Shown here: one piece after another, positions 21,141 to 51,840 of the stretch | How the letters are laid out: every line of letters begins with the position of its first letter | How positions within the stretch are numbered: position 1 is the first letter of the stretch | Origin: a virus | Virus record (IMG/VR): IMGVR_UViG_3300032893_000006 | Span: 32,001-96,000 of that record | DNA: 64,000 nt | Reading direction: 5' to 3' (one strand) | The notes under the pieces: generated by a model | Told to the model about the DNA's origin: nothing | The model's database searches: none | The model's input: the letters and a program-made list of their open reading frames with translations, nothing else | Position numbers and translations under genes: made by a program

Positions 21141-21382
21141 GAGACCTCGTCCAAGAAATGGACCGCGATGGCTACTCGCTTAATGAAGTGTTAGCTGCGA
21201 TTCGTCGAGAATGGTTCGTAATGGAACTACAAAAATACACTGGAAATCAGTGTCTTGTAGCTGCAAGACTCGGTATTCATCGGAACACCGTTAACAGAAA
21301 TCTTAGAAAATATTCCGTCGATCCAAAAATTGGCCGTGGACGTCAAACGAAATTTATGTACCAGAAAGGAACGGAGAAATGA
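21128..21382 (+). CDS. Stand-alone Fis-type helix-turn-helix protein
   Basis: YTGNQCLVAARLGIHRNTVNRNL. Confidence 0.75.
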   Translation: MARLRDLVQEMDRDGYSLNEVLAAIRREWFVMELQKYTGNQCLVAARLGIHRNTVNRNLRKYSVDPKIGRGRQTKFMYQKGTEK

Positions 21383-21651
21383 AAGGCACAGTGCAGTTCT
21401 TCAACAACAGCAAGGGATGGGGATTTATCAAGCGGGAAAATGAGGCTGACTTGTTTGTTCACTATACGGGCATCAAGTCGGAAGGCTATAAGACACTCAA
21501 CGAAGGTGACGTCGTAGAGTTCGATGTAGCACGCGGCCAGAAAGGTGAGCAGGCCGAAAACGTCACCGTCATCACCAAAGCTCAAATAAAGCCGGTTCAC
21601 CGGCACGCAAAGGCATCAAATGCGTCCGAAGCGTCTGATTCTGGTAATTGA
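21379..21651 (+). CDS. csp: Cold-shock domain protein (CspA family)
   Basis: KGTVQFFNNSKGWGFI (RNP1), LFVHY (RNP2), GYKTLNEGDVVEF, AENV. Confidence 0.95.
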   Translation: MKGTVQFFNNSKGWGFIKRENEADLFVHYTGIKSEGYKTLNEGDVVEFDVARGQKGEQAENVTVITKAQIKPVHRHAKASNASEASDSGN

Positions 21652-22161: not shown

Positions 22162-22401
22162 ATGCCGCGAAGAAAGCCGACACCTGAGGACCTTGATCGT
22201 CGCCAAGCGCGAGCGGAGGAAATGAAAGCTTTCATGGCTGACAATAATTTTACTGAGGTAAAATTAGCCGATGTTCTCGGCGTTTCGCGAAGAACTGTTC
22301 AAATGATGAAAGCTGGAAGGGTCACGCCATCGACAGAAACAATTCGAAAATGGGAGTCGCTTTTGAAGCAATACGGACTCAAGCCCACGCTGCCGCTGTA
22401 A
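22162..22401 (+). CDS. XRE/Cro-like HTH regulator
   Basis: TEVKLADVLGVSRRTVQMMKAG..PS. Confidence 0.8.
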   Translation: MPRRKPTPEDLDRRQARAEEMKAFMADNNFTEVKLADVLGVSRRTVQMMKAGRVTPSTETIRKWESLLKQYGLKPTLPL

Positions 22402-22436: not shown

Positions 22437-22901
22437 ATGCCATTGGAAGTAGACGAAGTAGTTGATATCCCCGGTTTGACGGGCGAAGAGATCATTGTCG
22501 ATCTTTGTGAGCAAATCAAAAACAAGCTCCGTCGCGATTGCAATCTCCGTCCTGCTGATTCATACATTAACGGATACAGTGCAGAGATTTCGGTGAAGAT
22601 TCAGTGCTACGGCATCGATACTGCGCAAGTGGAGACGACGATTTCTGCGACAAAAGAACCTCCGTCCGAAGCGGGAACAAAACCTGTTTTGGAAGTAACC
22701 GAGCAGGTGATTATTGCCCATGAACCCGATCTCGAAGCTGTTCGCGACCGCAGCGCACTAGAAGCCCCGCAGCTTGAGAAAAACGATACTCCGGCACCAT
22801 CTGCTCCAGAAGGAGAAAAAGCTCAAGAGCCAAGTCGTCGCCAATACGGTCAACGGACGCATCGTGTTGCAGGAGGCGGAGCCGGAAGCTTCGATAAGTA
22901 A
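22437..22901 (+). CDS. Hypothetical acidic protein
   Basis: AGGAGGAG RBS, 154 aa. Confidence 0.75.
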   Translation: MPLEVDEVVDIPGLTGEEIIVDLCEQIKNKLRRDCNLRPADSYINGYSAEISVKIQCYGIDTAQVETTISATKEPPSEAGTKPVLEVTEQVIIAHEPDLEAVRDRSALEAPQLEKNDTPAPSAPEGEKAQEPSRRQYGQRTHRVAGGGAGSFDK

Positions 22902-23213: not shown

Positions 23214-23569
23214 ACTCAGTTCAAGAAGACCAAATCATCAAAGCAGTGGCTATGTTTGCCGAGGCTTTTCGTAGCCTCGCCGACACAGCGCGGAGTGCCT
23301 ATGAGGAAGGGAAAAGGGTCTCAGAACGGCTCTGGCCCGAGCGACCAGAGAAACAGCGAGAAGCTAAAGTCTCCAGAGTCCCCACAGCCGAAGACAGGGC
23401 GAAAGAAGACCAAGGTGCAGCCGATACGCGCCCCATTAGTCAATGGCTCTCCCTCGACGAAGAACTCGCTGAGCCCCGCCTTGGACCAAGAGAGCGAGAA
23501 TGGCTTAGAGAGCACCCCGAAGAACAAGTCTATGCGCCGGGTACCAAAGCTGGCGGTAAAGCGGGATAG
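23210..23569 (+). CDS. Hypothetical protein
   Basis: ATGA coupling, charged helical sequence. Confidence 0.6.
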   Translation: MNSVQEDQIIKAVAMFAEAFRSLADTARSAYEEGKRVSERLWPERPEKQREAKVSRVPTAEDRAKEDQGAADTRPISQWLSLDEELAEPRLGPREREWLREHPEEQVYAPGTKAGGKAG

Positions 23570-24179
23570 ACACGATGACGCACTTCGTCGTCTCGGTGTT
23601 CGCCAAACAGAAGTCGATCTTTGTCCGCCATTGACAACGATGATTCGTACCACAATTCGTGGCGGGACGAGAACTGCGCTGCGCGCTATGCGATTCGCAT
23701 CGAACGATCTATCGATCAAGGCTTTCCTCGACACATACAATTCAATTCCAGAAGGCGACCGCGAAAAACTGCCTTGGGAGGCCATCGCAATTGCTGCCAA
23801 AGTCGACGTTGAGCGTTTGTTAGGAGCGATACATTTCGCCCTTCAATCGGATTCAGTGATGCAGGTAAAATTCATTGCGCTGAGCCATTATCCGAGCGTG
23901 ATGAAGAAGATGATGAAATATGCGAAAGATAAAACTGGAGAACGCGACCGTGCGGCTATCAATCAAGCAATGGGATTCACGCCTTCTCCCAAGCCGCCTA
24001 CTTTTATAGGCAAAGCGATATTTGGAGCAGAATCGGTTTCCGATGATTCCGAAGAAGAAATAAAACAACCGGCATTTTCAATGGAAGATAACGTAAATTC
24101 TATTTTTCCATCTTCAACCGACATGCAAAATAAATTGATTCCGATACGTCAACGCCTCCTCGAAGAAGGCGATAAGTAA
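23301..24179 (+). CDS. Putative terminase small subunit (start uncertain: 23301 or 23533)
   Basis: Immediately upstream of terL; basic disordered N-terminus and helical body; no diagnostic motif. Confidence 0.35.
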   Translation: MRKGKGSQNGSGPSDQRNSEKLKSPESPQPKTGRKKTKVQPIRAPLVNGSPSTKNSLSPALDQESENGLESTPKNKSMRRVPKLAVKRDRHDDALRRLGVRQTEVDLCPPLTTMIRTTIRGGTRTALRAMRFASNDLSIKAFLDTYNSIPEGDREKLPWEAIAIAAKVDVERLLGAIHFALQSDSVMQVKFIALSHYPSVMKKMMKYAKDKTGERDRAAINQAMGFTPSPKPPTFIGKAIFGAESVSDDSEEEIKQPAFSMEDNVNSIFPSSTDMQNKLIPIRQRLLEEGDK

Positions 24180-24256: not shown

Positions 24257-27200
24257 ATTTATTCCCCAAAAATCGTACAGGCAAATCTCGACGCTTTCGC
24301 GGCCAAAAATAAGTGGATGCCTATTCCACACTCGCAAGATGAGATCGACGACTTCAAAGAAGTAATTGCAAAAATCGTCGACATCGAAGAGACTAGCCGA
24401 TCCGCCTCTGTATCTCTTAAAGGCCCAATCAGTTCGAACGTCGCGACGGAGATCAGGCAGTTCATTCAAAACGAACAAGTCTTATGCGCCCTCGATAACA
24501 GCTATTGGGAGGCGCGCTACGCATACGTGTGTAACGAGAAGGGAGAGATTTCAAAATTTAGGAACAGAAAATCTCAGGAAGTCTTCGATCAAATTGTCGG
24601 CGACTTCGACGAGCGTCAGGTCTCAATTGAGGTTCTTTGCCTCGATCCGAACGCTAAGATACTGACTGCTGACCTCAAGTGGAAACGCCTCGATGACATT
24701 CAAATCGGCGAAGAACTGGTAGCTGTCGATGAAGGGCAAAGCATGAACGAGAGACGTGCTGAAGCAGCAAAGCGACAGCGCGAATTGAGGAGCGGCGTTC
24801 ACAGAGGAAAATCGACAAAACGCTTGCGTAAAGAACGTAAAATGCGAACGACTATTGTCGAAAATAAATGGGAATCTTGCAAAGAAGCATTGAAGTTTAC
24901 GTTTGAAGATGGGAGAACTTTAATCTGCTCGGCGGATCACCAGTGGTTGTGCAAGCAGCGCGGAGGATGCGAACCTATATGGCAAAAATCTGAAGAAATG
25001 CGGGTGGGAGATCAGGCCAGATATATAACGAAGCCGTGGAATGAGCAGACAACCGCTGATGCATGGATGGGGGGAATCATCGATGGAGAAGGATCGCTCG
25101 ACAGTGGATGTGGCATCGAAATAAATATCACTCAGGTGTTCAATGTAGTTTTCGACCGCGTAAAGGAATATCTTTCGATCTCCGGATATAACTTCCAACA
25201 GGGAATCGACAAAAGACAGCCGTCTAAGGATGGCAGGGGAAAACTGGGATCAAAGGACGTCGGGAGGTTATACGTTTCGCGGATGGATGAAGCATTTCGG
25301 ATCATCGGCCAGACGAGGCCATTCCGTTTTATCTCTAAAAAATGGTGGGAAGGGAAAAGTCTTCCCGGAAAGAAGACAGGAATTGGCTGGTCACGGATTG
25401 TAAAGATTGAAATCCTTCCAAAACAGCGCATGATTGACATCCAAACTTCGACAAGGACATTCATCGCGGAGGGTTTTGTATCTCACAATTGTCTTAAAGG
25501 TCGGCAGGTCGGAATCACGACCAAGACCGCCTTGAAGTTCATGCACCGTCTGATGTTCATCCCCCACACACAGGCTGTTATGGCTTCGGTACAAGCTGAG
25601 AAGTCGGAACTCATTGGCCGAATTCTGGACATTGCATATACCAAGTCGCCATGGTGGCTAGTGCCGATGCGCGGCTCCAAGGGACGGTTCGACAATGGCT
25701 CCGTCTTATCCATCCAGTCAGGTATGCAGGCGACCGGTATTGCTCAGGGATGGACGCCGACTTGCCTTCCGTACTTCTCAAAAATCCGAATGGCAAACGG
25801 ATTCCTCAAGGCGATTAGTGAAGTTAGTGTAGGTGAAAGAGTTCTCACACATCAAGGTAAAATCGCAACTGTAAAAAAGGCTTTCGAAACAAAACCTTTT
25901 GCGCAAACGAAAGTTTTACGACTATGGGGACACTATTCACCACTCGAATGCACAATCGAACACCGCGTCTCGACGCCGGATGGTTTTGTTGAGGCCGACC
26001 AGATTTCAGTGGGAGACTATGTATGCCATCCGCTGCGAGAGATTAAACACTCTCTCCTCAAGGCTCAGTTTACGCACTTCAGTCGTGGCAAGATCGCAGC
26101 AAACAAGGCGCATAATTTCGATGCTCCGTTCGATCTTCCATTTGGGTATTTGTGTGGCCTGTACCTCGCTGAAGGCAGCTTGCATAAGAGTGGAATTGGG
26201 AAGAAAAAGCCGTATCTGTCAGAAGTAATTTTTACGGTACATGAAAGAGAAGCAGAGGACCGTGTTCAGATGTTGCGTCGATTTCTCGGGAAGGAGCAGC
26301 ATATAAAAGTTAAGAAACACAACGAGCATGGCGCGCAGATTAAAATTTCAGCGGCTTGGCTGGCGCGGTGGATATCGGAAAATTTTGGAGAGAAAACAAA
26401 CAAGCAAATTCCAGACTGGATTTGGGATGCTGGCGAAGAATTTTGCAGGGGAATACTCTATGGATATTTAGATGGAGATGGCCATTGCGATACCAGCAGC
26501 AATAATGTGGTAGCTCCGACAATATGTTCGCAGATCGCTTATCAGATGCGCGACTTGGTCGCATCTTTGAAATACGGTTGGGCATCGATTTATTTCGTTG
26601 ACGAACATAGGCAAGGTTCCATGAAAAAGCGTCCAGTTTGGCGGCTGGTGTTGAGTGGCCCCGTTGGTGCGGGATATCGTCGGGATCGCGGACTGCCGTT
26701 CAGAAAACCGATGAAACATGCTCGCCATTGGCGCTATGGAGTCGACGGCAAAACAGTCGATGTGATGATTGAAAGCATTTCCCATAACTCGTCTGCTAGC
26801 CTTTGGGATTTGGAGGTTGATAGCGAAGACCATTCGTTCACTACAGATCAGTGTGCGGTACACAATTGCGTGCACATCTCCGAGCTTGCCGACATTCCAA
26901 AGCCAGAGAAGGTCATTGAAGAAGGTCTGCTCCGCGCCACCCACTCGTCTCGAAATCTATTCCTTGTTCTCGAAGGAACTGGCGGCGGCAATACAGGATG
27001 GCTTGCGGAGACTTGGCGTAACGCCAAGCGCGATTATCCACTCGGCAAGCACCGTCTCTGCCCGATCTTTCTGCCGTGGTTTACTGCCACCGATCTCTAT
27101 CCGGAAGCGGATTGGATTCGTAAATTCCCGATCCCCGGAAACTTCATGCGCGAGCGTCTCGATGCCACAGTCAAGCACGTCGCTCGGTGCGAGGCATTCG

Positions 27201-28384
27201 TCCGCAACACGCCGTACATGCGCAAGGTTTATGGTGCAGGATGGACGATGCCAATCGACCAGCAGTGGTTCTATGACTTCAATTATCGGCAGGCAGTCAA
27301 CAACCGCACACAGAGAGTGTGGATGGCGCAGATGCCTGCTGACGACTTCGAGGCGTTGACAGGAAAGCATGACTCCGTCTTCGAAGCGGATGTCATCGAG
27401 GACCTTGAGAGCAATATCTATGAGATCATCACGAATCGCGCTACAGGAGAAGAGACAAAGCTGCGCAAGCAGCCGGTGGATGCGTATGCGATCACCGGCC
27501 ACGATGTCGACCCGTCGTTTTACCCGAGCAAGGACCAGATCGATTTTAGCAAGCCGCCAATCAACGTTTATTGGAATTCGAGCCGAGGCCAAGAGTACGA
27601 GTGGCAGATGGTCCCTCTGATTTGGCTTCCCGAAGAAAACGAAGAAAACACGATGGATCGTCTTCTGATTTTTGAACACCCAGCCAAATGGAACGAGTAC
27701 ACTCTTGGTATCGATACAGCGGATGGTCTAGGCAAAGAAGACGAAGAAAGGACTGTGCTTTCGCTGGCGAAAAATCGCTATCATGGCGGCTACGATGAAC
27801 AGGTAGCCGAATTCACCTCGAACAGAGTTAATGCGGCGCAGGCTGTAGCATTCGCCGCCTGCATTGGAGCGTACTGGAGCCCTTGCGTTCAAGATAGTCG
27901 TGGCATCATGTATGCTATCGAACAGATTGGAAGGCCGGGAGAGACATGTCAGCACCAGCTAAAAATGATGGGATTTCATCGTCATTACCGTCCCAAAAGG
28001 TTCGATTCAAAAAAAATCAAAGATGAATTAGGAAAGAAAGAAGGATGGTGGTCAAGCGCTTGGGCAGTACCGATCCTGATGACGCGGTACGTTGAGGCGA
28101 TCAATGGGGGATGGTACGTTCCTCGTTCGCGTTGGCTGATTGAGGAATTGAAGACGTTGGAGCGCCGTCAAGCGGCAGGAAAGTCGAAGATGGTGCACAG
28201 AAGCGGCCAATTCGATGACAGAGTTCGAGCGTCGGCACAGTCGTTTTTCTGCGCGCACGACCTCGATGTTCTCGCAGACCGCGCCCAAAAGAGAAGAGTC
28301 GTGCCAAAGCAAATGAACGAACCTACGCCAATGCGGCGAGCGGGGCAAGTCTCAGTGAGCGACGGCGATGACGATTGGGGATAA
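24257..28384 (+). CDS. terL: Terminase large subunit with two inteins (probable ATT start at 24257; first ATG at 24317)
   Basis: After splicing: LKGRQVGITT (Walker A), VHISELA (Walker B), LEGTG coupling motif, LGIDTADG nuclease motif. Confidence 0.9.
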   Translation: MYSPKIVQANLDAFAAKNKWMPIPHSQDEIDDFKEVIAKIVDIEETSRSASVSLKGPISSNVATEIRQFIQNEQVLCALDNSYWEARYAYVCNEKGEISKFRNRKSQEVFDQIVGDFDERQVSIEVLCLDPNAKILTADLKWKRLDDIQIGEELVAVDEGQSMNERRAEAAKRQRELRSGVHRGKSTKRLRKERKMRTTIVENKWESCKEALKFTFEDGRTLICSADHQWLCKQRGGCEPIWQKSEEMRVGDQARYITKPWNEQTTADAWMGGIIDGEGSLDSGCGIEINITQVFNVVFDRVKEYLSISGYNFQQGIDKRQPSKDGRGKLGSKDVGRLYVSRMDEAFRIIGQTRPFRFISKKWWEGKSLPGKKTGIGWSRIVKIEILPKQRMIDIQTSTRTFIAEGFVSHNCLKGRQVGITTKTALKFMHRLMFIPHTQAVMASVQAEKSELIGRILDIAYTKSPWWLVPMRGSKGRFDNGSVLSIQSGMQATGIAQGWTPTCLPYFSKIRMANGFLKAISEVSVGERVLTHQGKIATVKKAFETKPFAQTKVLRLWGHYSPLECTIEHRVSTPDGFVEADQISVGDYVCHPLREIKHSLLKAQFTHFSRGKIAANKAHNFDAPFDLPFGYLCGLYLAEGSLHKSGIGKKKPYLSEVIFTVHEREAEDRVQMLRRFLGKEQHIKVKKHNEHGAQIKISAAWLARWISENFGEKTNKQIPDWIWDAGEEFCRGILYGYLDGDGHCDTSSNNVVAPTICSQIAYQMRDLVASLKYGWASIYFVDEHRQGSMKKRPVWRLVLSGPVGAGYRRDRGLPFRKPMKHARHWRYGVDGKTVDVMIESISHNSSASLWDLEVDSEDHSFTTDQCAVHNCVHISELADIPKPEKVIEEGLLRATHSSRNLFLVLEGTGGGNTGWLAETWRNAKRDYPLGKHRLCPIFLPWFTATDLYPEADWIRKFPIPGNFMRERLDATVKHVARCEAFVRNTPYMRKVYGAGWTMPIDQQWFYDFNYRQAVNNRTQRVWMAQMPADDFEALTGKHDSVFEADVIEDLESNIYEIITNRATGEETKLRKQPVDAYAITGHDVDPSFYPSKDQIDFSKPPINVYWNSSRGQEYEWQMVPLIWLPEENEENTMDRLLIFEHPAKWNEYTLGIDTADGLGKEDEERTVLSLAKNRYHGGYDEQVAEFTSNRVNAAQAVAFAACIGAYWSPCVQDSRGIMYAIEQIGRPGETCQHQLKMMGFHRHYRPKRFDSKKIKDELGKKEGWWSSAWAVPILMTRYVEAINGGWYVPRSRWLIEELKTLERRQAAGKSKMVHRSGQFDDRVRASAQSFFCAHDLDVLADRAQKRRVVPKQMNEPTPMRRAGQVSVSDGDDDWG
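24638..25489 (+). mobile_element. Intein 1 in TerL (284 aa) with a LAGLIDADG-type endonuclease
   Basis: Starts CLDPNAK, block B CSADHQW, WMGGIIDGEGS, ends FVSHN before Cys. Confidence 0.92.
25763..26866 (+). mobile_element. Intein 2 in TerL (368 aa) with a two-motif LAGLIDADG endonuclease
   Basis: Starts CLPYFSK, block B CTIEHRV, YLCGLYLAEGS and ILYGYLDGDG, ends AVHN before Cys. Confidence 0.92.
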
Positions 28385-32400: not shown

Positions 32401-32637
32401 GTGGCAAAGATTAGAAACATCAAAAACTACTATCTGACAGAAATCGTCTTCGAACCCCCTGTCGACTTGAATGAAGTGCACGACTTCATCAGGCGCAGCC
32501 GCGCGAACGCAGAGCTTGTCGGAATCTTTTCGAATGGCGGCGTGCAGGGCATTACGATGAAGCAGCGCACGCATATTCTGTCGACCGAAGATTCAAAGGT
32601 TCGCGAGATTTTAGGGATTAAAGACATAGAGATTTAG
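32401..32637 (+). CDS. Hypothetical protein
   Basis: AGGAGG RBS, GTG start. Confidence 0.65.
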   Translation: MAKIRNIKNYYLTEIVFEPPVDLNEVHDFIRRSRANAELVGIFSNGGVQGITMKQRTHILSTEDSKVREILGIKDIEI

Positions 32638-32687
32638 CGCAGACTAAGTAGTGAGTTAGCGCAGATTAACTTTTTTACGAAAATCTC

Positions 32688-32805
32688 TTGACAACAAAAC
32701 TAGATCGGCTCTAAGTTCATTAAGAAGAGAACGTGCTCCCCTCCTTGGGATAAAGCGGCGACTCAAGCCACGAAAGACGGCGCTTGAGTTCGCCGTTTTT
32801 CTTTT
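32688..32805 (+). promoter_or_regulatory. Late promoter with conserved leader and terminator-like hairpin (copy 1)
   Basis: TTGACA, 18 nt, TAAGTT; leader motif shared with 49292-49355; hairpin plus U-tract. Confidence 0.75.
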
Positions 32806-32836
32806 GCGTGAAAAACCAAAACAAGGAGAGCACATC

Positions 32837-32953
32837 ATGGCACGGAAGAGACATCACAAGAAGGTCGCAGCGATGCACGCGGTTTCAGCCAAGAAGCATG
32901 GCCGTAAGCACGGCGGCAAGAAGCACGCGAAGAAGACCATCACCAAGGCGTAA
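32837..32953 (+). CDS. 38-aa Lys/His-rich basic micropeptide (MARKRHHKKVAAMHAVSAKKHGRKHGGKKHAKKTITKA)
   Basis: AAGGAG RBS; hand-translated; below the ORF-track cutoff. Confidence 0.7.
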   Translation: MARKRHHKKVAAMHAVSAKKHGRKHGGKKHAKKTITKA

Positions 32954-34361: not shown

Positions 34362-35624
34362 ATGCCAAACGATCCACTGCTGAATGAAATAGACGCCTCT
34401 AACCTACAGGCGGTGAGGATCGACGTTGTATTCAACAACTTCTTCGTTGGATACCCGTTCCTCGAAAAACTTCGTCGTGTGGGTGTGGCTGATCCATTCC
34501 TTGGCGGCTCGGCGATGCAGGAAGGCATCCTTTACGGTCGTGCACAGGGCGCAGCCGTGAATCCCGGCCAGACTGTCACGGTAACGCGTCAGCAGATCAA
34601 CACCGGCATGAAGTTCCAACCGAAGGCATACGCCTCGTGGTTCCCGATGGATGACTGGGAACTGGATGACGGCTCCGGAACTGGTGGTGTCATCAACTCC
34701 GGCCCACCGCGCATCGTGGACGAGTACCAGCTTTGGATGGAAAACCTCGTCATGCAGATCAACACGATGCTTGAGATGGACGCGTTCCGTCACGGGCAGA
34801 GTGCCTCGGCAACCGTTACCGACAACCGCATCAAGGCCAGCAACGGCATGGACGAAGCCCTCAACAACGGTATCGACCCGTCCGTCTACGGCAACCGGTA
34901 CACGACGTACGGTGCACAGCAGCGCAATGGCAACATCGGTATTGCGTTGAATTCGACACCTCTTTATCTCGGCACAAATCCCGGCGTCTTCAATGGCACC
35001 GGAACCAGCAGCCCCGGCCAGATCGGTATGCCGCAGTTGCATCAGCTTTGGGATCAGTGCCGCATTACCGGTGGACAGCCGACTCTTGGCATCACCAACG
35101 TCTTCGGTTTCAAGGCAATCTGCGTGGCGCTCGATCAGCAACGCCGCGACGTGAACCTAACCAAGCACGATCTTCGTTGGGACGCTTTCAGTTTCAACGG
35201 CGTAGATATCTACACCGATCCGCTGGCACCTTCAGCGCAGGCGCAGAACTACATCCCGTTGGGTCCGAATCCCGGACCGGCAAGCAACACCACGCTGGTT
35301 GACGGTGTTGGCTCGAACACCACCACAATTTCATTCCAGACGCCGCAGTTTACGAACCCGACGACGAATGCTGCAGTCAACTTCTCGCCGACCGGTTCTG
35401 GATTGCCGTCACTGACCACAATCCAGCCGTCCGAGGTGCTCTACTTTCTCGAACCGGAGAGCTTCTTCCTTCGCACGACCAACAAGCGTGGCTGGAACTT
35501 TGGCGTTCGTCGGGCACCAATGCCGAATAACGTCAGCATCGACGCGATCTTCATGCGCTTGGGTACGAACCTGTACAACACGCAACCGCGTCACTCGGCA
35601 TACGCATTCGGCTTCACGGCCTAA
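34362..35624 (+). CDS. Major capsid protein
   Basis: 420 aa after the scaffold, strong RBS, biased codons. Confidence 0.75.
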   Translation: MPNDPLLNEIDASNLQAVRIDVVFNNFFVGYPFLEKLRRVGVADPFLGGSAMQEGILYGRAQGAAVNPGQTVTVTRQQINTGMKFQPKAYASWFPMDDWELDDGSGTGGVINSGPPRIVDEYQLWMENLVMQINTMLEMDAFRHGQSASATVTDNRIKASNGMDEALNNGIDPSVYGNRYTTYGAQQRNGNIGIALNSTPLYLGTNPGVFNGTGTSSPGQIGMPQLHQLWDQCRITGGQPTLGITNVFGFKAICVALDQQRRDVNLTKHDLRWDAFSFNGVDIYTDPLAPSAQAQNYIPLGPNPGPASNTTLVDGVGSNTTTISFQTPQFTNPTTNAAVNFSPTGSGLPSLTTIQPSEVLYFLEPESFFLRTTNKRGWNFGVRRAPMPNNVSIDAIFMRLGTNLYNTQPRHSAYAFGFTA

Positions 35625-48147: not shown

Positions 48148-49014
48148 ATGGCATACCTCCCCCTCTCTCCTGCCGGACGCCGGTACGGTCGGTTTCGCGA
48201 CAACCCCTACCATCCCGCGCGGACCTTACTCGCGATGAACCCAACAACAGACGTCATTCTTCCAGCCAAGGCTGCAACATCTCAGTGGACCGGGCCAATT
48301 CGCGATCAAGGCCAAGAAGGCTCCTGCACTGGTCAGATGGGAGGCGCGCTACGTGATGCGCTCTACCGTAAGCTATTTCAGTACGAAAAAGATCGCAGTA
48401 TTTCCGCCGATCAATTCAAGGTATCGGCCTCTTTCATCTACAAGTGCAATCTCATCGCTGACGGCGATCTTGGCACAGATGCTGGTAGCAGCATTCATCA
48501 GACCGTCATGACGCTCAACCAGAAAGGAGCGTGCCTCGAATCCGAGGAGCCGTACAGCGACAGCGACTATTCGACCGAGCCTACACAGACGCAGTACGAA
48601 CAAGCGCTCACTTACAAATCTGGGGCCTACCATTACATTCCTGATCTCCAGACCATGAAGTCTTGTATCGCATCAGGTTATCCGTTCGGTTTCGGAATCT
48701 CTGTCTATTCGTCGTTCGAGGGGACATGGTCTGAGCCGGGAATGATGCCGGTGCCTGATCCAAACACAGAGCAACTCCTCGGAGGTCATGCTCAACCAGT
48801 CTTTGACTACGACGACACCCTTGAGTTTCCGGACGGAAACGTTGGCGGATTCTTGATCCAGAACTCGTGGGGCAGCGACTGGGGAATTTCTGCACCGGGA
48901 CGAAATGATGGCGGTTTCTATTGGATGCCATACGCCTTCGTTGAAGGTAGCGATCCAAAGAATGGTCCGTTCGTGAACGATGCGTGGGTTATTCACCTTG
49001 GTCCAGCTTGGTAA
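48148..49014 (+). CDS. Papain-like (C1A) cysteine peptidase
   Basis: IRDQGQEGSCTG (oxyanion Gln, catalytic Cys), GGHA (His), QNSWG (Asn). Confidence 0.92.
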   Translation: MAYLPLSPAGRRYGRFRDNPYHPARTLLAMNPTTDVILPAKAATSQWTGPIRDQGQEGSCTGQMGGALRDALYRKLFQYEKDRSISADQFKVSASFIYKCNLIADGDLGTDAGSSIHQTVMTLNQKGACLESEEPYSDSDYSTEPTQTQYEQALTYKSGAYHYIPDLQTMKSCIASGYPFGFGISVYSSFEGTWSEPGMMPVPDPNTEQLLGGHAQPVFDYDDTLEFPDGNVGGFLIQNSWGSDWGISAPGRNDGGFYWMPYAFVEGSDPKNGPFVNDAWVIHLGPAW

Positions 49015-49029
49015 AACTCAAAGGAGGAT

Positions 49030-49251
49030 ATGGTGCCAATAGAGAAAAGCACAGGATCGGAAGCAGAGAAAAAACGAAATTTTCACGATCTTCGACACGG
49101 AAAGACCTTTCGAAAAACCGAGAAAAAATATGGGAGGGCGAAAGCTCGAAGTCAAATGATCGCGATTGCATTGGAAGCGCAGCGCGCAGGGAAGAAGAAG
49201 TCGAAGAAGCACAAAAAAGCGCAGCACAAGAAAAGGGTCTCGAAGCGCTGA
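49030..49251 (+). CDS. Small Lys-rich basic protein
   Basis: AAGGAGG RBS; MIAIALEA helix and poly-Lys tail. Confidence 0.75.
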   Translation: MVPIEKSTGSEAEKKRNFHDLRHGKTFRKTEKKYGRAKARSQMIAIALEAQRAGKKKSKKHKKAQHKKRVSKR

Positions 49252-49257
49252 TTTATC

Positions 49258-49355
49258 GTGACAATCGACCCGTTTTGCGGTATAAATTTTGAGAGAACGT
49301 GCTCCCCGGGCAGGGACAAAGCGGCGACTCAAGCTTAAGGCTTGAGCCGCTTTTT
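49258..49355 (+). promoter_or_regulatory. Late promoter with conserved leader and terminator-like hairpin (copy 2)
   Basis: GTGACA, 17 nt, TATAAA; leader shared with 32726-32800. Confidence 0.8.
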
Positions 49356-49377
49356 GTTTGGCCCAAGGAGTCATGAG

Positions 49378-49650
49378 ATGGCAAAGCTGAGCTATAAACG
49401 TCGGCAAGAACTGCCAGCTTCTGAGTTCGCGATTCCCTCCGAGCGAAAATATCCGCTTGATACGAAGAACCGGGCGCGCGATGCGCTATCACGTGCTTCA
49501 CAAAACGCATCTCCTTCACAAAAAGCGCAGATCAAGAAAAAAGTCCATCAGAAGTACCCGAGCATTAAGGTGAGCGGGCTTCATGGAGCCGAGAAAAAAG
49601 CCACTCGGCGCAAGCACTCGGTTCGAAAAATTTCACTTCGAAAGGATTAA
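49378..49650 (+). CDS. Small basic protein (LPASEFAIPSERKYPL..ARDALSR; DUF6582-like)
   Basis: Motif recalled from phage head-region proteins; AAGGAG RBS. Confidence 0.7.
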   Translation: MAKLSYKRRQELPASEFAIPSERKYPLDTKNRARDALSRASQNASPSQKAQIKKKVHQKYPSIKVSGLHGAEKKATRRKHSVRKISLRKD

Positions 49651-50340: not shown

Positions 50341-51840
50341 ATGCCTTCGAATTACCAATGGATACAGCTAACGACAGCGATCTCGCAGCTTGCGCAACGT
50401 CTCAGCGATCCAAGTAACGCTTTTTGGACACAAGCAGAACTTGTTATCTACATTCAGCAAGCCCTGCGTCTATTTAACACCCTAACCTTCACTTGGAAAA
50501 CAGACTTCACCTACAACTCGTCGACTATCTGGAACTCGCTTGGCTCATTGAACGGTTCCCCTCGTCTTCGTACGCAAACCGACGTTAATTGCTATACGCA
50601 GATTGAGTACATGCTGCTGGAACCGCCTACAGGCGGAACGTGGACCGGCACCAATCAGTTTTCCATTGCCAATCTGTCGCAGGCGCTGCAGACTCGGCGC
50701 GACGAGATGATTCAAGTTGGCAATCTCAATTCCGTTTTGCTGCCGAATATTCCTGTGACGCCTAATGTGCGTCGCACCTATCTTCCAGATTCCACAATTG
50801 ACGTGGCGCGAGTTCGCTATCTTGCGTTGCAAACCTCCACGACCGGATCGGCTTCTTCTGGGGCGACAAGCATTACTGTTGGATCGACACGGGGAATCAC
50901 TCAAGGGCAAATTGTGAGCGGCAATGGAATTGCTTACGGCTCGGCAGTAGTTGCTGTCGAACCCAACTCCATCACAATTGCTCCAGCGTCAATTGGGGTT
51001 GTAACAGGAACGTTAAACTTCTACAGCGCGTCGATTATTTTTCGCGACGACACAGTAGCTTCGGAATTCTATGAGGCACCTCTCTATCAGCAGCCTTCAG
51101 GAACTCCGCAAATATTTTCGCTATCTTCCGAACCACCTCTTTCATGGAATGTTGACATTGCACCGAACACGGTCGGAAGTTACGAAGCAATTGTTTCTCA
51201 GACTGGCACAGCATTTTCGCCCCCGTCTGCAACACTGCTCAATATTCCCGATGATTTCACTTGGGCGTTAATCTTTGGAGCTATGGCTGACCTGCTTGGT
51301 CGCGAAGCTGAGGCATCTGATCCGCAGCGGGCTGAGTATTGCTTAAAGCGCTACATGGACGGCCTGATGCTACTTCAAAAAATTCCATGGATTATGCTCG
51401 GGCGCGTTAATGGAAAAGCAGTCAATTGCGATTCAATCTTCGCTTTGGATCACTTCGACAGCAACTGGGACTCAAACCCAACTAATTTTGGCCCGGTAAT
51501 TGTGACAGGTGGCGTCGACTTCGTTGCGGCTCCATCTGGATCGGGAATTGGGCTGACGGTTCTCGGTAACGCGCCGATTCCGGTTTCCGGAAGTGATTAT
51601 GTGCAGGTGAGCAGAAGTGACTATGACATCATCCTCGATCTAGCTCAAAGCTTTGCGTGTTTTAAGATGGGCGGCGCTGACTGGCAGCAATCGCTTGAAC
51701 TTGAGGCGCGAGCCATTCAAGCCTGTTCTGCTGAAAATACTCGCCTCCGTAGCTTCGGTGCCTTCAGCGACATTCTAGTGCAGAGAGGGCAGCAAGAGCA
51801 GAGAGATCAGAATCCATACAACGCGAACAAGGCAAAGTAG
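50341..51840 (+). CDS. Head-tail adaptor/tail structural protein
   Basis: LTTAISQLAQRLSDP..FWTQAELVIYIQQA adaptor-type N-terminus; ALIFGAMADL C-terminal helix. Confidence 0.6.
   Translation: MPSNYQWIQLTTAISQLAQRLSDPSNAFWTQAELVIYIQQALRLFNTLTFTWKTDFTYNSSTIWNSLGSLNGSPRLRTQTDVNCYTQIEYMLLEPPTGGTWTGTNQFSIANLSQALQTRRDEMIQVGNLNSVLLPNIPVTPNVRRTYLPDSTIDVARVRYLALQTSTTGSASSGATSITVGSTRGITQGQIVSGNGIAYGSAVVAVEPNSITIAPASIGVVTGTLNFYSASIIFRDDTVASEFYEAPLYQQPSGTPQIFSLSSEPPLSWNVDIAPNTVGSYEAIVSQTGTAFSPPSATLLNIPDDFTWALIFGAMADLLGREAEASDPQRAEYCLKRYMDGLMLLQKIPWIMLGRVNGKAVNCDSIFALDHFDSNWDSNPTNFGPVIVTGGVDFVAAPSGSGIGLTVLGNAPIPVSGSDYVQVSRSDYDIILDLAQSFACFKMGGADWQQSLELEARAIQACSAENTRLRSFGAFSDILVQRGQQEQRDQNPYNANKAK

Follow-up and report, generated by a model that had tools for sequence, protein, structure and literature searches.

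This locus raises the question of whether a leader found ahead of two blocks of structural genes acts as a regulatory switch for them, and by what means it might do so. We analysed a window of 64,000 nt (bases 32001-96000 of the 134,337-bp IMG/VR virus record IMGVR_UViG_3300032893_000006, rated complete), in whose coordinates all features are given. The initial annotation had described two shared motif stretches, each lying shortly after a -10 box, ending in a hairpin with a U-tract and followed by a small basic protein gene, and all of this description holds. The sequence AGAGAACGTGCTCCCC matches exactly at 32726-32741 and 49292-49307, and AAAGCGGCGACTCAAGC at 32752-32768 and 49318-49334; in shuffled sequence, allowing up to three mismatches, the mean number of matches is below one (0.55 and 0.32, respectively). 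The leader copies extend over 32726-32806 and 49291-49361. Their motif is present only twice in the whole record, and a filter-free covariance-model scan of the window returned the same two copies and no others. Sigma70-like promoter hexamers, read directly from the sequence, lie upstream of each copy, with a gap between the -10 and the motif of 8 nt (copy 1) and 5 nt (copy 2), and a strong SD precedes the small basic ORF at both copies.

32688-32717, plus strand: promoter-like site of copy 1, with -35 TTGACA (32688-32693), an 18-nt spacer and -10 TAAGTT (32712-32717)
32837-32953, plus strand: first gene after copy 1; its translation is a Lys/Arg/His-rich protein of 38 aa
After the 38-aa gene: head block with proteins of 100 aa, 337 aa and 420 aa, the last SU10_MCP-like (34362-35624)
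49258-49286, plus strand: promoter-like site of copy 2, with -35 GTGACA (49258-49263), a 17-nt spacer and -10 TATAAA (49281-49286)
49378-49650, plus strand: first gene after copy 2; a basic, DUF6582-like protein of 90 aa
After the 90-aa gene: small ORFs, then a 499-aa SU10-adaptor-like protein (50341-51840)

The likeness of the 420-aa protein to the SU10 capsid protein comes from the ESM Atlas and is only a lead, as is the adaptor likeness of the 499-aa protein. The 90-aa protein matches Pfam DUF6582 with an E value of 2.4e-5, under the curated cutoff of that family, and it also matches residues 280-332 of the crAss001 cargo protein gp45 (PDB 7qog, E 5.6e-4). This similarity points to a virion protein that is packaged or ejected, in keeping with an operon for virion proteins downstream of copy 2. 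Two other genes of the region deserve mention in their own right. A 288-aa protein encoded inside the structural region (48148-49014) contains a cysteine protease domain of the papain family (Peptidase_C1, E 2.3e-7). The sole PHROG match of a 1355-aa ORF (24317-28384) is to a short segment of the terminase large subunit (residues 370-451), and its relatives align over only ~500 residues, consistent with insertions.

In both copies the motif is followed by a GC-rich hairpin and U-tract (GUUUUUCUUUUG and CUUUUUGUUUGG), which we refer to as P2 and which has the form of an intrinsic terminator.

32752-32805, plus strand: intrinsic terminator P2 of copy 1, a terminator scan hit, with hairpin 32752-32799 and U-tract 32796-32805
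49318-49359, plus strand: intrinsic terminator P2 of copy 2, with hairpin 49318-49355 and U-tract 49351-49359

The hairpin is the RNAfold MFE structure at both loci (-33.2 kcal/mol with z -3.4 in copy 1; -27.9 kcal/mol in copy 2, where it is followed by the U-rich tail CUUUUUGUUUGG). A U-rich tail (at least 5 U in an 8-nt window) also follows P2 in 47 of the 51 family members, with a median of 8 U within the last 12 nt of the tail.

The initial annotation had named a lack of conservation in relatives as grounds for refutation; the leader is conserved there. When IMG/VR was scanned for exact 14-mers of the 5' motif, the only hits were chance ones within genes, a blastn search of the region against GenBank phages gave no matches, and GTDB genomes searched with the capsid protein yielded no relatives. 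As exact-word scans were useless, we took neighbouring proteins as queries to find relatives: the 420-aa protein returned 35 loci at 65-95% identity, and the 499-aa protein a further 23. All retrieved loci carry a leader of the same build, with either a small basic ORF or a different structural gene downstream, in the order promoter, short conserved 5' motif, small variable hairpin, A-rich junction, GC hairpin with U-tract, CA-rich spacer, AAGGAG and start codon. In the copies inspected the leader begins a few nucleotides downstream of a promoter-like site; TTGACA/TAAGTT-type hexamers recur in relatives, and the GTGACA-N17-TATAAA arrangement ahead of the second copy is kept in the complete relatives G001 and G002. 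Small basic ORFs homologous to the 38-aa protein are found in relatives, where some leader copies are not followed by such an ORF; the initial annotation had suggested that the basic proteins might do the sensing. The commonest sequence variant alone has 77 matching stretches in IMG/VR.

Copy number varies among these genomes. Three complete genomes have two copies each, and in G001 and G002 these are 17-20 kb apart, as in the window phage. The partial or proviral records G006, G007 and G009 have 5-7 covariance-model hits each, and in G007, where the 5' motif was counted 10 times, leaders are found upstream of the terminase, head block, capsid gene, adaptor block, large tail protein and ejection block. 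The leader is thus spread over structural operons: every copy is on the coding strand, co-oriented ahead of terminase, head, capsid, adaptor or tail genes. A search with the element itself returned four high-scoring copies on Acidobacteriaceae/Acidobacteriota MAG contigs of 186-602 kb. These copies on large contigs suggest, from sequence, that the hosts of this clade are Acidobacteriota and that integrated relatives exist, some members being temperate. The copies on the bacterial MAG contigs L218, L220 and L225 score 58-76 bits, and two of them lie 2 kb apart in L225.

Comparison among relatives indicated how the conserved part of the leader ahead of the terminator can fold. Plain MAFFT alignments of 16-17 leaders, which had not been fitted to any structure, were submitted to RNAalifold, and the consensus that was returned was not the terminator; it comprised two other helices, P0b and P1. 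P0b pairs the 5' motif CGUGC with GC(G)GCG at the start of the 5' arm of the terminator, thereby enclosing P1. Outside it lies P0a, in which the outermost 5' triplet pairs with the three bases that follow the 3' strand of P0b. In the window these elements lie as follows.

32727-32764, plus strand: sensor/antiterminator of copy 1, closed by P0a (GAG 32727-32729 with CUC 32762-32764)
32732-32736 with 32755-32760, plus strand: P0b of copy 1 (CGUGC with GC(G)GCG)
32739-32749, plus strand: P1 of copy 1, a CCC/GGG hairpin, followed by the A-rich junction AUAAA (32750-32754)
49293-49330, plus strand: sensor/antiterminator of copy 2, closed by P0a (GAG 49293-49295 with CUC 49328-49330)
49298-49302 with 49321-49326, plus strand: P0b of copy 2 (CGUGC with GC(G)GCG)
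49305-49315, plus strand: P1 of copy 2 (CCC/GGG), followed by the junction ACAAA (49316-49320)

Two covariance models collected 57 distinct copies, and the final pair counts were taken from alignments fitted to the model. Over these 57 distinct sequences the five base pairs of P0b are 97.5% paired, with changes on both sides at four of the five; one pair occurs as AU (31), GC (21) and UA (2), and another as UA (34), CG (11) and UG (9). None of 500 shuffles reached the observed measures, and slid controls pair at no more than 35%. The variants met include CAUGC/GCAAUG, CGUGC/GCGGCG, CGCGC/GCAGCG, CGCGG/CUGGCG, CUUGC/GUAGAG and UAUGC/GCCAUA. P0a forms all three of its pairs in nearly all of 56 rows; among 37 copies it reads GAG/CUC in 23, UAG/CUA in 8 and GAG/CUU in 2. 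P1, which spans 10-37 nt, is variable in sequence (CCC/GGG, CUUGCC/GGCAAG and UUUCUGAUCC/GGAUUCAGAAA, among others) and always folds. Conserved unpaired bases are few, namely a CC 5' of P1, AAYAA 3' of P1, a purine that bulges from P0b and a single G or A separating P0b from P0a. The 5' spacer is 1-3 nt long and the junction varies from CAA to AACAA; its A-rich character could be conserved merely because it is the A-tract partner of the terminator U-tract. The sensor domain of copy 2 scores 48.5 and 40.8 bits with the covariance models.

The first ~10 nt of the P2 5' arm are the 3' strands of P0b and P0a, so the antiterminator and the terminator are mutually exclusive. The leader therefore offers two covarying alternative folds, and their predicted stabilities differ. 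In every full-length member the MFE structure is the P2 terminator hairpin (-23 to -46 kcal/mol), and a fold constrained to contain P0 is typically less stable by 7-10 kcal/mol, and by up to 22 kcal/mol in one relative; the antiterminator being the weaker fold, the default state would be OFF. The nascent prefix, taken without the 3' arm of P2, has the antiterminator fold (P0a, P1, and P0b in its own or a nearby register) as its MFE in most members. In copy 1 this fold, at about -10 kcal/mol, is within 0.5 kcal/mol of the prefix MFE. In copy 2 the prefix MFE of -11.5 kcal/mol is an antiterminator-type fold in which P0a and P1 are combined with a P0b variant of 3 bp, and the bulged 5-bp register lies 1.1 kcal/mol above it. 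In these folding models P0 is predicted to form first and to lose to the terminator unless it is held, which is the classical antiterminator arrangement.

The same leader appears to reach further downstream, to the start of the first gene.

32822-32839, plus strand: SD region of copy 1, with AAGGAG at 32823-32828 and the start codon at 32837-32839
49361-49380, plus strand: SD region of copy 2, with AAGGAG at 49365-49370 and the start codon at 49378-49380

In copy 1, 32822-32833 is complementary to 32733-32747, which covers the 5' strand of P0b, the 5' strand of P1 and the loop; in copy 2, GCCCAAGGAG (49361-49370) is complementary to CUCCCCGGGC (49302-49311). When the leader is folded as far as the start codon, this SD pairing spans the terminator hairpin in both copies (MFE -46.8 kcal/mol, z -4.8 in copy 1; -43.4 kcal/mol, z -3.4 in copy 2). 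The variable P1 of relatives tracks the bases beside their own SD, with pairs such as GUGG/CCAC, GUGA/UCAC, CCUUUGGG/CCCAAAGG, GUUUGG/CCAAAC and UACGC/GCGUA. Cognate duplexes are more stable than non-cognate ones (-13.2 versus -10.9 kcal/mol, with none of 20,000 permutations as low), and this remains so for 35 non-redundant copies from all operon types (-12.9 versus -11.1 kcal/mol, permutation p = 4e-5); for copy 2 the cognate duplex reaches -19.4 kcal/mol against a non-cognate mean of -10.8. The complementarity arises in part because a C-rich strand faces the G-rich SD, and the effect is modest (a mean of ~2 kcal/mol) but specific.

Some members have no terminator. In L187 (3076-3116), L181 (3338-3376) and L179 (5340-5380) the SD follows directly after P0a-P0b-P1, and the terminator-less leaders of L187 and L181 precede a gene for a small basic protein of the 'HGK...QAIAIAL' type, like the one at 49030-49251 in the window. 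Both the P0-P1 hairpin and its complementarity to the SD are retained in these variants, as in CCCCCCCUUG with CAAGGGGGGG, from which it follows that P0-P1 is a conserved sensor joined to variable expression platforms.

Based on these results, we propose, with a probability of roughly 0.6, that the leader is a two-state, on/off switch for the virion operons that acts on both transcription and translation and responds to a trans-acting factor. The promoters would fire with host polymerase. In the OFF state, P2 and its U-tract would form and halt RNA polymerase 65-80 nt after the start, releasing an RNA of that length, and in transcripts that escape, the C-rich P1 region would pair with the SD region and block translation of the first gene. 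In the ON state, GAG..CGUGC would pair with GC(G)GCG.CUC to form a stacked P0a-P0b-P1 hairpin, which would preclude the terminator and leave the SD free. The factor, most likely a protein that the phage makes at an earlier stage of infection or following induction, would stabilise P0-P1 when virion genes are needed and thus open both locks at all leader-bearing operons. We infer such a factor because of the energy gap between the two folds, the masked SD of genes that require high expression and the pattern of one sensor with variable platforms. The suggestion in the initial annotation of an attenuation or antitermination switch ahead of the capsid and tail blocks is thereby supported, and it is sharpened by the covariation of an antiterminator helix built in part from a strand of the terminator.

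We searched for the factor among the genes of the phage. No candidate RNA-binding antiterminator was recognised among the window ORFs, and no domain of that kind turned up when 30 ORFs of the early and middle regions (12.5-30 kb) were scanned against Pfam. The CAT_RBD domain (PF03123) is absent from the phage genome, the controls having been detected in four genomes; ANTAR (PF03861) had no match in the genome and its control was equally silent. The phage encodes a canonical cold-shock protein (Csp, 21379-21651; CSD, E 9e-25), which is found in G000, G002 and G003. As an obligatory antiterminator it was rejected, being missing from the complete leader-bearing relatives G001 and G005. Three genes are common to all seven compared genomes and lie directly upstream of the packaging/late block, and a fourth, in every relative, lies before the head leader, in most of them directly.

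22162-22401: XRE-type HTH protein, 79 aa, upstream of the late block
22437-22901: acidic protein of 154 aa with the invariant motif DCNLR..D.Y..GY
23256-24179: 307-aa protein, upstream of the late block
32401-32637: 78-aa protein, before the head leader

The first three are, by position, candidates for late-gene regulators or the small terminase, and all four are candidate effectors by position only. An AlphaFold model of the 78-aa protein (pLDDT 81.6) has a beta-alpha-beta-beta-alpha order and found no significant match in the PDB, its resemblance to dodecin, PII or RRM folds being weak; the model of the 154-aa protein (pLDDT 47) is too poor for use.

Other ways of reading the conserved bases were also considered and set aside. 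A leader peptide is contradicted by the start codon (AUG/GUG/UUG) within P0b, which becomes CGC or CUC in about 12 members and has no SD before it. A CsrA-type GGA motif in the 3' strand of P1 is absent from several members. The near-palindrome GAGAACGTGCTC, pointed out in the initial annotation, is present in the window; as a DNA palindrome (GAGAAC/GTGCTC) it is not conserved in relatives.

The absence of an identified regulator gives weight to the view that nothing is bound at all. According to this explanation the folds are the same, and co-transcriptional competition between them sets a readthrough that is fixed or depends on physiology (polymerase speed, NTP, temperature); the terminator would also end the upstream operon, and the anti-SD pairing would merely tune translation of the first gene. 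The antiterminator is indeed the first fold open to the nascent RNA, and the searches of phage ORFs and Pfam families identified no regulator. Since conserved unpaired nucleotides are few and the A-rich junction is possibly just an A-tract partner, a kinetic attenuator of this sort, an attenuator or insulator working without a factor, would fit much of the data. It should be noted, however, that the complete leader, at equilibrium, hides the SD of genes in need of strong expression, that the sensor hairpin is kept even where no terminator is attached to it, and that one leader at up to ~10 operons resembles the signal of a regulon. We regard a factor-free leader as unlikely. The lack of a protein partner could also speak for a riboswitch, an ON switch for a small molecule reporting the state of the host, whose aptamer would be P0a-P0b-P1 including the bulged purine and the CC/AAYAA internal loop. 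As in transcriptional ON riboswitches, one strand of the closing helix also belongs to the terminator, and one conserved sensor is combined with two kinds of expression platform. The domain is, however, very small, with variable junction lengths and a freely variable P1; no Rfam class matches it, and virion genes would be unusual targets, all of which makes this reading improbable. In wider terms, it is a doubtful conjecture that P0a-P0b-P1 is the sensor that switches a whole virion regulon of 2 to ~10 operons and that its effector is new in kind, the leader then being a small-molecule riboswitch of a new class or the target of RNA-binding antiterminator proteins of a new family.

Two further explanations go back to the initial annotation. 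In phage lambda, PR'-tR' is a promoter-proximal terminator ahead of the late genes that yields a short terminated RNA unless Q antiterminates. By analogy, a Q-like protein would here load at a DNA site and a promoter-proximal pause, the motif being a DNA or pause element. The layout agrees with this analogy, a terminator close to the promoter and ahead of late genes, and the mechanism does not. The two Q families searched, PF06530 and PF03589, have no match in the 134-kb genome, with their controls detected, and the motif lacks a conserved -10-like pause hexamer. In L126, L137, L138, L140 and L154, an extra hairpin of 30-70 nt stands between promoter and leader motif and moves the element that much farther from the promoter, which argues that the motif is an RNA feature rather than a promoter-anchored DNA site; the conserved positions, moreover, covary as RNA base pairs. 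We give this reading almost no credence. The extra hairpin is of the GACGC...GCGUC type, belongs to one subclade and may be a 5' stabiliser. A role for the terminated transcripts of 65-80 nt as trans-acting small RNAs made from two or more loci had also been raised. Transcription from the promoter to the terminator would release a short RNA whose single-stranded 5' end is followed by a hairpin, an A-rich linker and a terminator with a U tail, and regulatory roles are possible for short RNAs that arise by termination at late promoters of phages (PMC7547250). Against it, the variable part of each copy matches the SD downstream of that same copy, every copy is co-oriented and just upstream of a gene, terminator-less members exist, and an antisense partner of the 5' motif was sought in the genomes and not found. 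The cis-specific match to the SD points to a primary role in cis; a small RNA may exist as a by-product and is very unlikely to be the main function.

The timing of virion-gene expression in uncultured, non-model phages is mostly unknown. A common leader of many virion operons, in which one RNA couples control of termination with masking of the SD, is notable in this setting. The leader is defined by sequence, occurs in multiple copies and flags the structural operons of Acidobacteriota phages and prophages that form a clade with genomes of 50-140 kb; it thus provides a handle for annotating late operons and a bait for the regulator or ligand. If the effector were a metabolite or a new protein family, this would be a new antitermination system, and should the riboswitch reading be true, the phage would time particle production by the metabolic state of its host.

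How does the proposed switch compare with systems already described? A search with Rfam release 15 at gathering thresholds found no match in the window or in the loci of 10 relatives, an Rfam scan of 32600-32900 at E<=10 gave only chance-level rows, and no description of this leader was found in the literature, in line with the initial annotation, which had recognised no known family. The platforms of ON riboswitches, such as the adenine-responsive pbuE/ydhL, resemble the leader in that sensor helix and terminator share a strand, the sensor is transcribed first and is the weaker fold, its stabilisation leads to readthrough, and one sensor is found with either terminator or SD-sequestration platforms. 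The sensor of our leader is much simpler, with no ligand known and no matching Rfam class, and the leader differs further in its targets, phage virion operons, and in having terminator and anti-SD element within the same RNA. In the RAT elements of BglG, SacY and LicT, likewise, a short, imperfectly paired hairpin that contains internal loops overlaps the terminator 5' arm, as it does here; both hairpins would need a bound protein, and a single protein could serve several leaders. To our knowledge RAT has no sequence relation to the leader, whose hairpin starts at or near the 5' end of the transcript and also governs access to the SD, in a phage that has no CAT_RBD protein.

Among phage systems, lambda PR'-tR' with Q and N with nutL/nutR share with our leader a seemingly constitutive promoter that is followed at once by a terminator, ahead of late genes. 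There are also two copies per genome in the case of N, with a small basic protein gene just downstream of one of them, as N lies after nutL. Lambda Q and N make the polymerase processively resistant to terminators and share no RNA strand with a terminator, unlike the leader, and its presence at almost every structural operon of relatives argues for local rather than processive action. The boxA and the boxB with conserved loop that make up nut have no counterpart across the family: a boxA-like UGCUC occurs only in the subfamily of the window, other members having UGCC, CGCC or GCGG there, and P1 loops are conserved in neither sequence nor length. The put sites of HK022 are also structured RNAs placed right after phage promoters in two copies and affect termination in cis; they consist of two stem-loops that modify the polymerase for distant terminators and share no sequence with those terminators, whereas our leader physically competes with an adjacent one. 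ANTAR RNAs have two tandem hexaloop hairpins, the second overlapping the terminator, whereas the leader is a single composite hairpin with a P1 of 10-37 nt. Membership in the lambda-Q-like, N/nut, ANTAR or BglG-type systems is therefore not supported. Judged by sequence and fold, the leader has what characterises the generic terminator/antiterminator attenuator, namely a terminator with its U-tract and a covarying helix that shares a strand with that terminator, and it is a new RNA family of this known kind.
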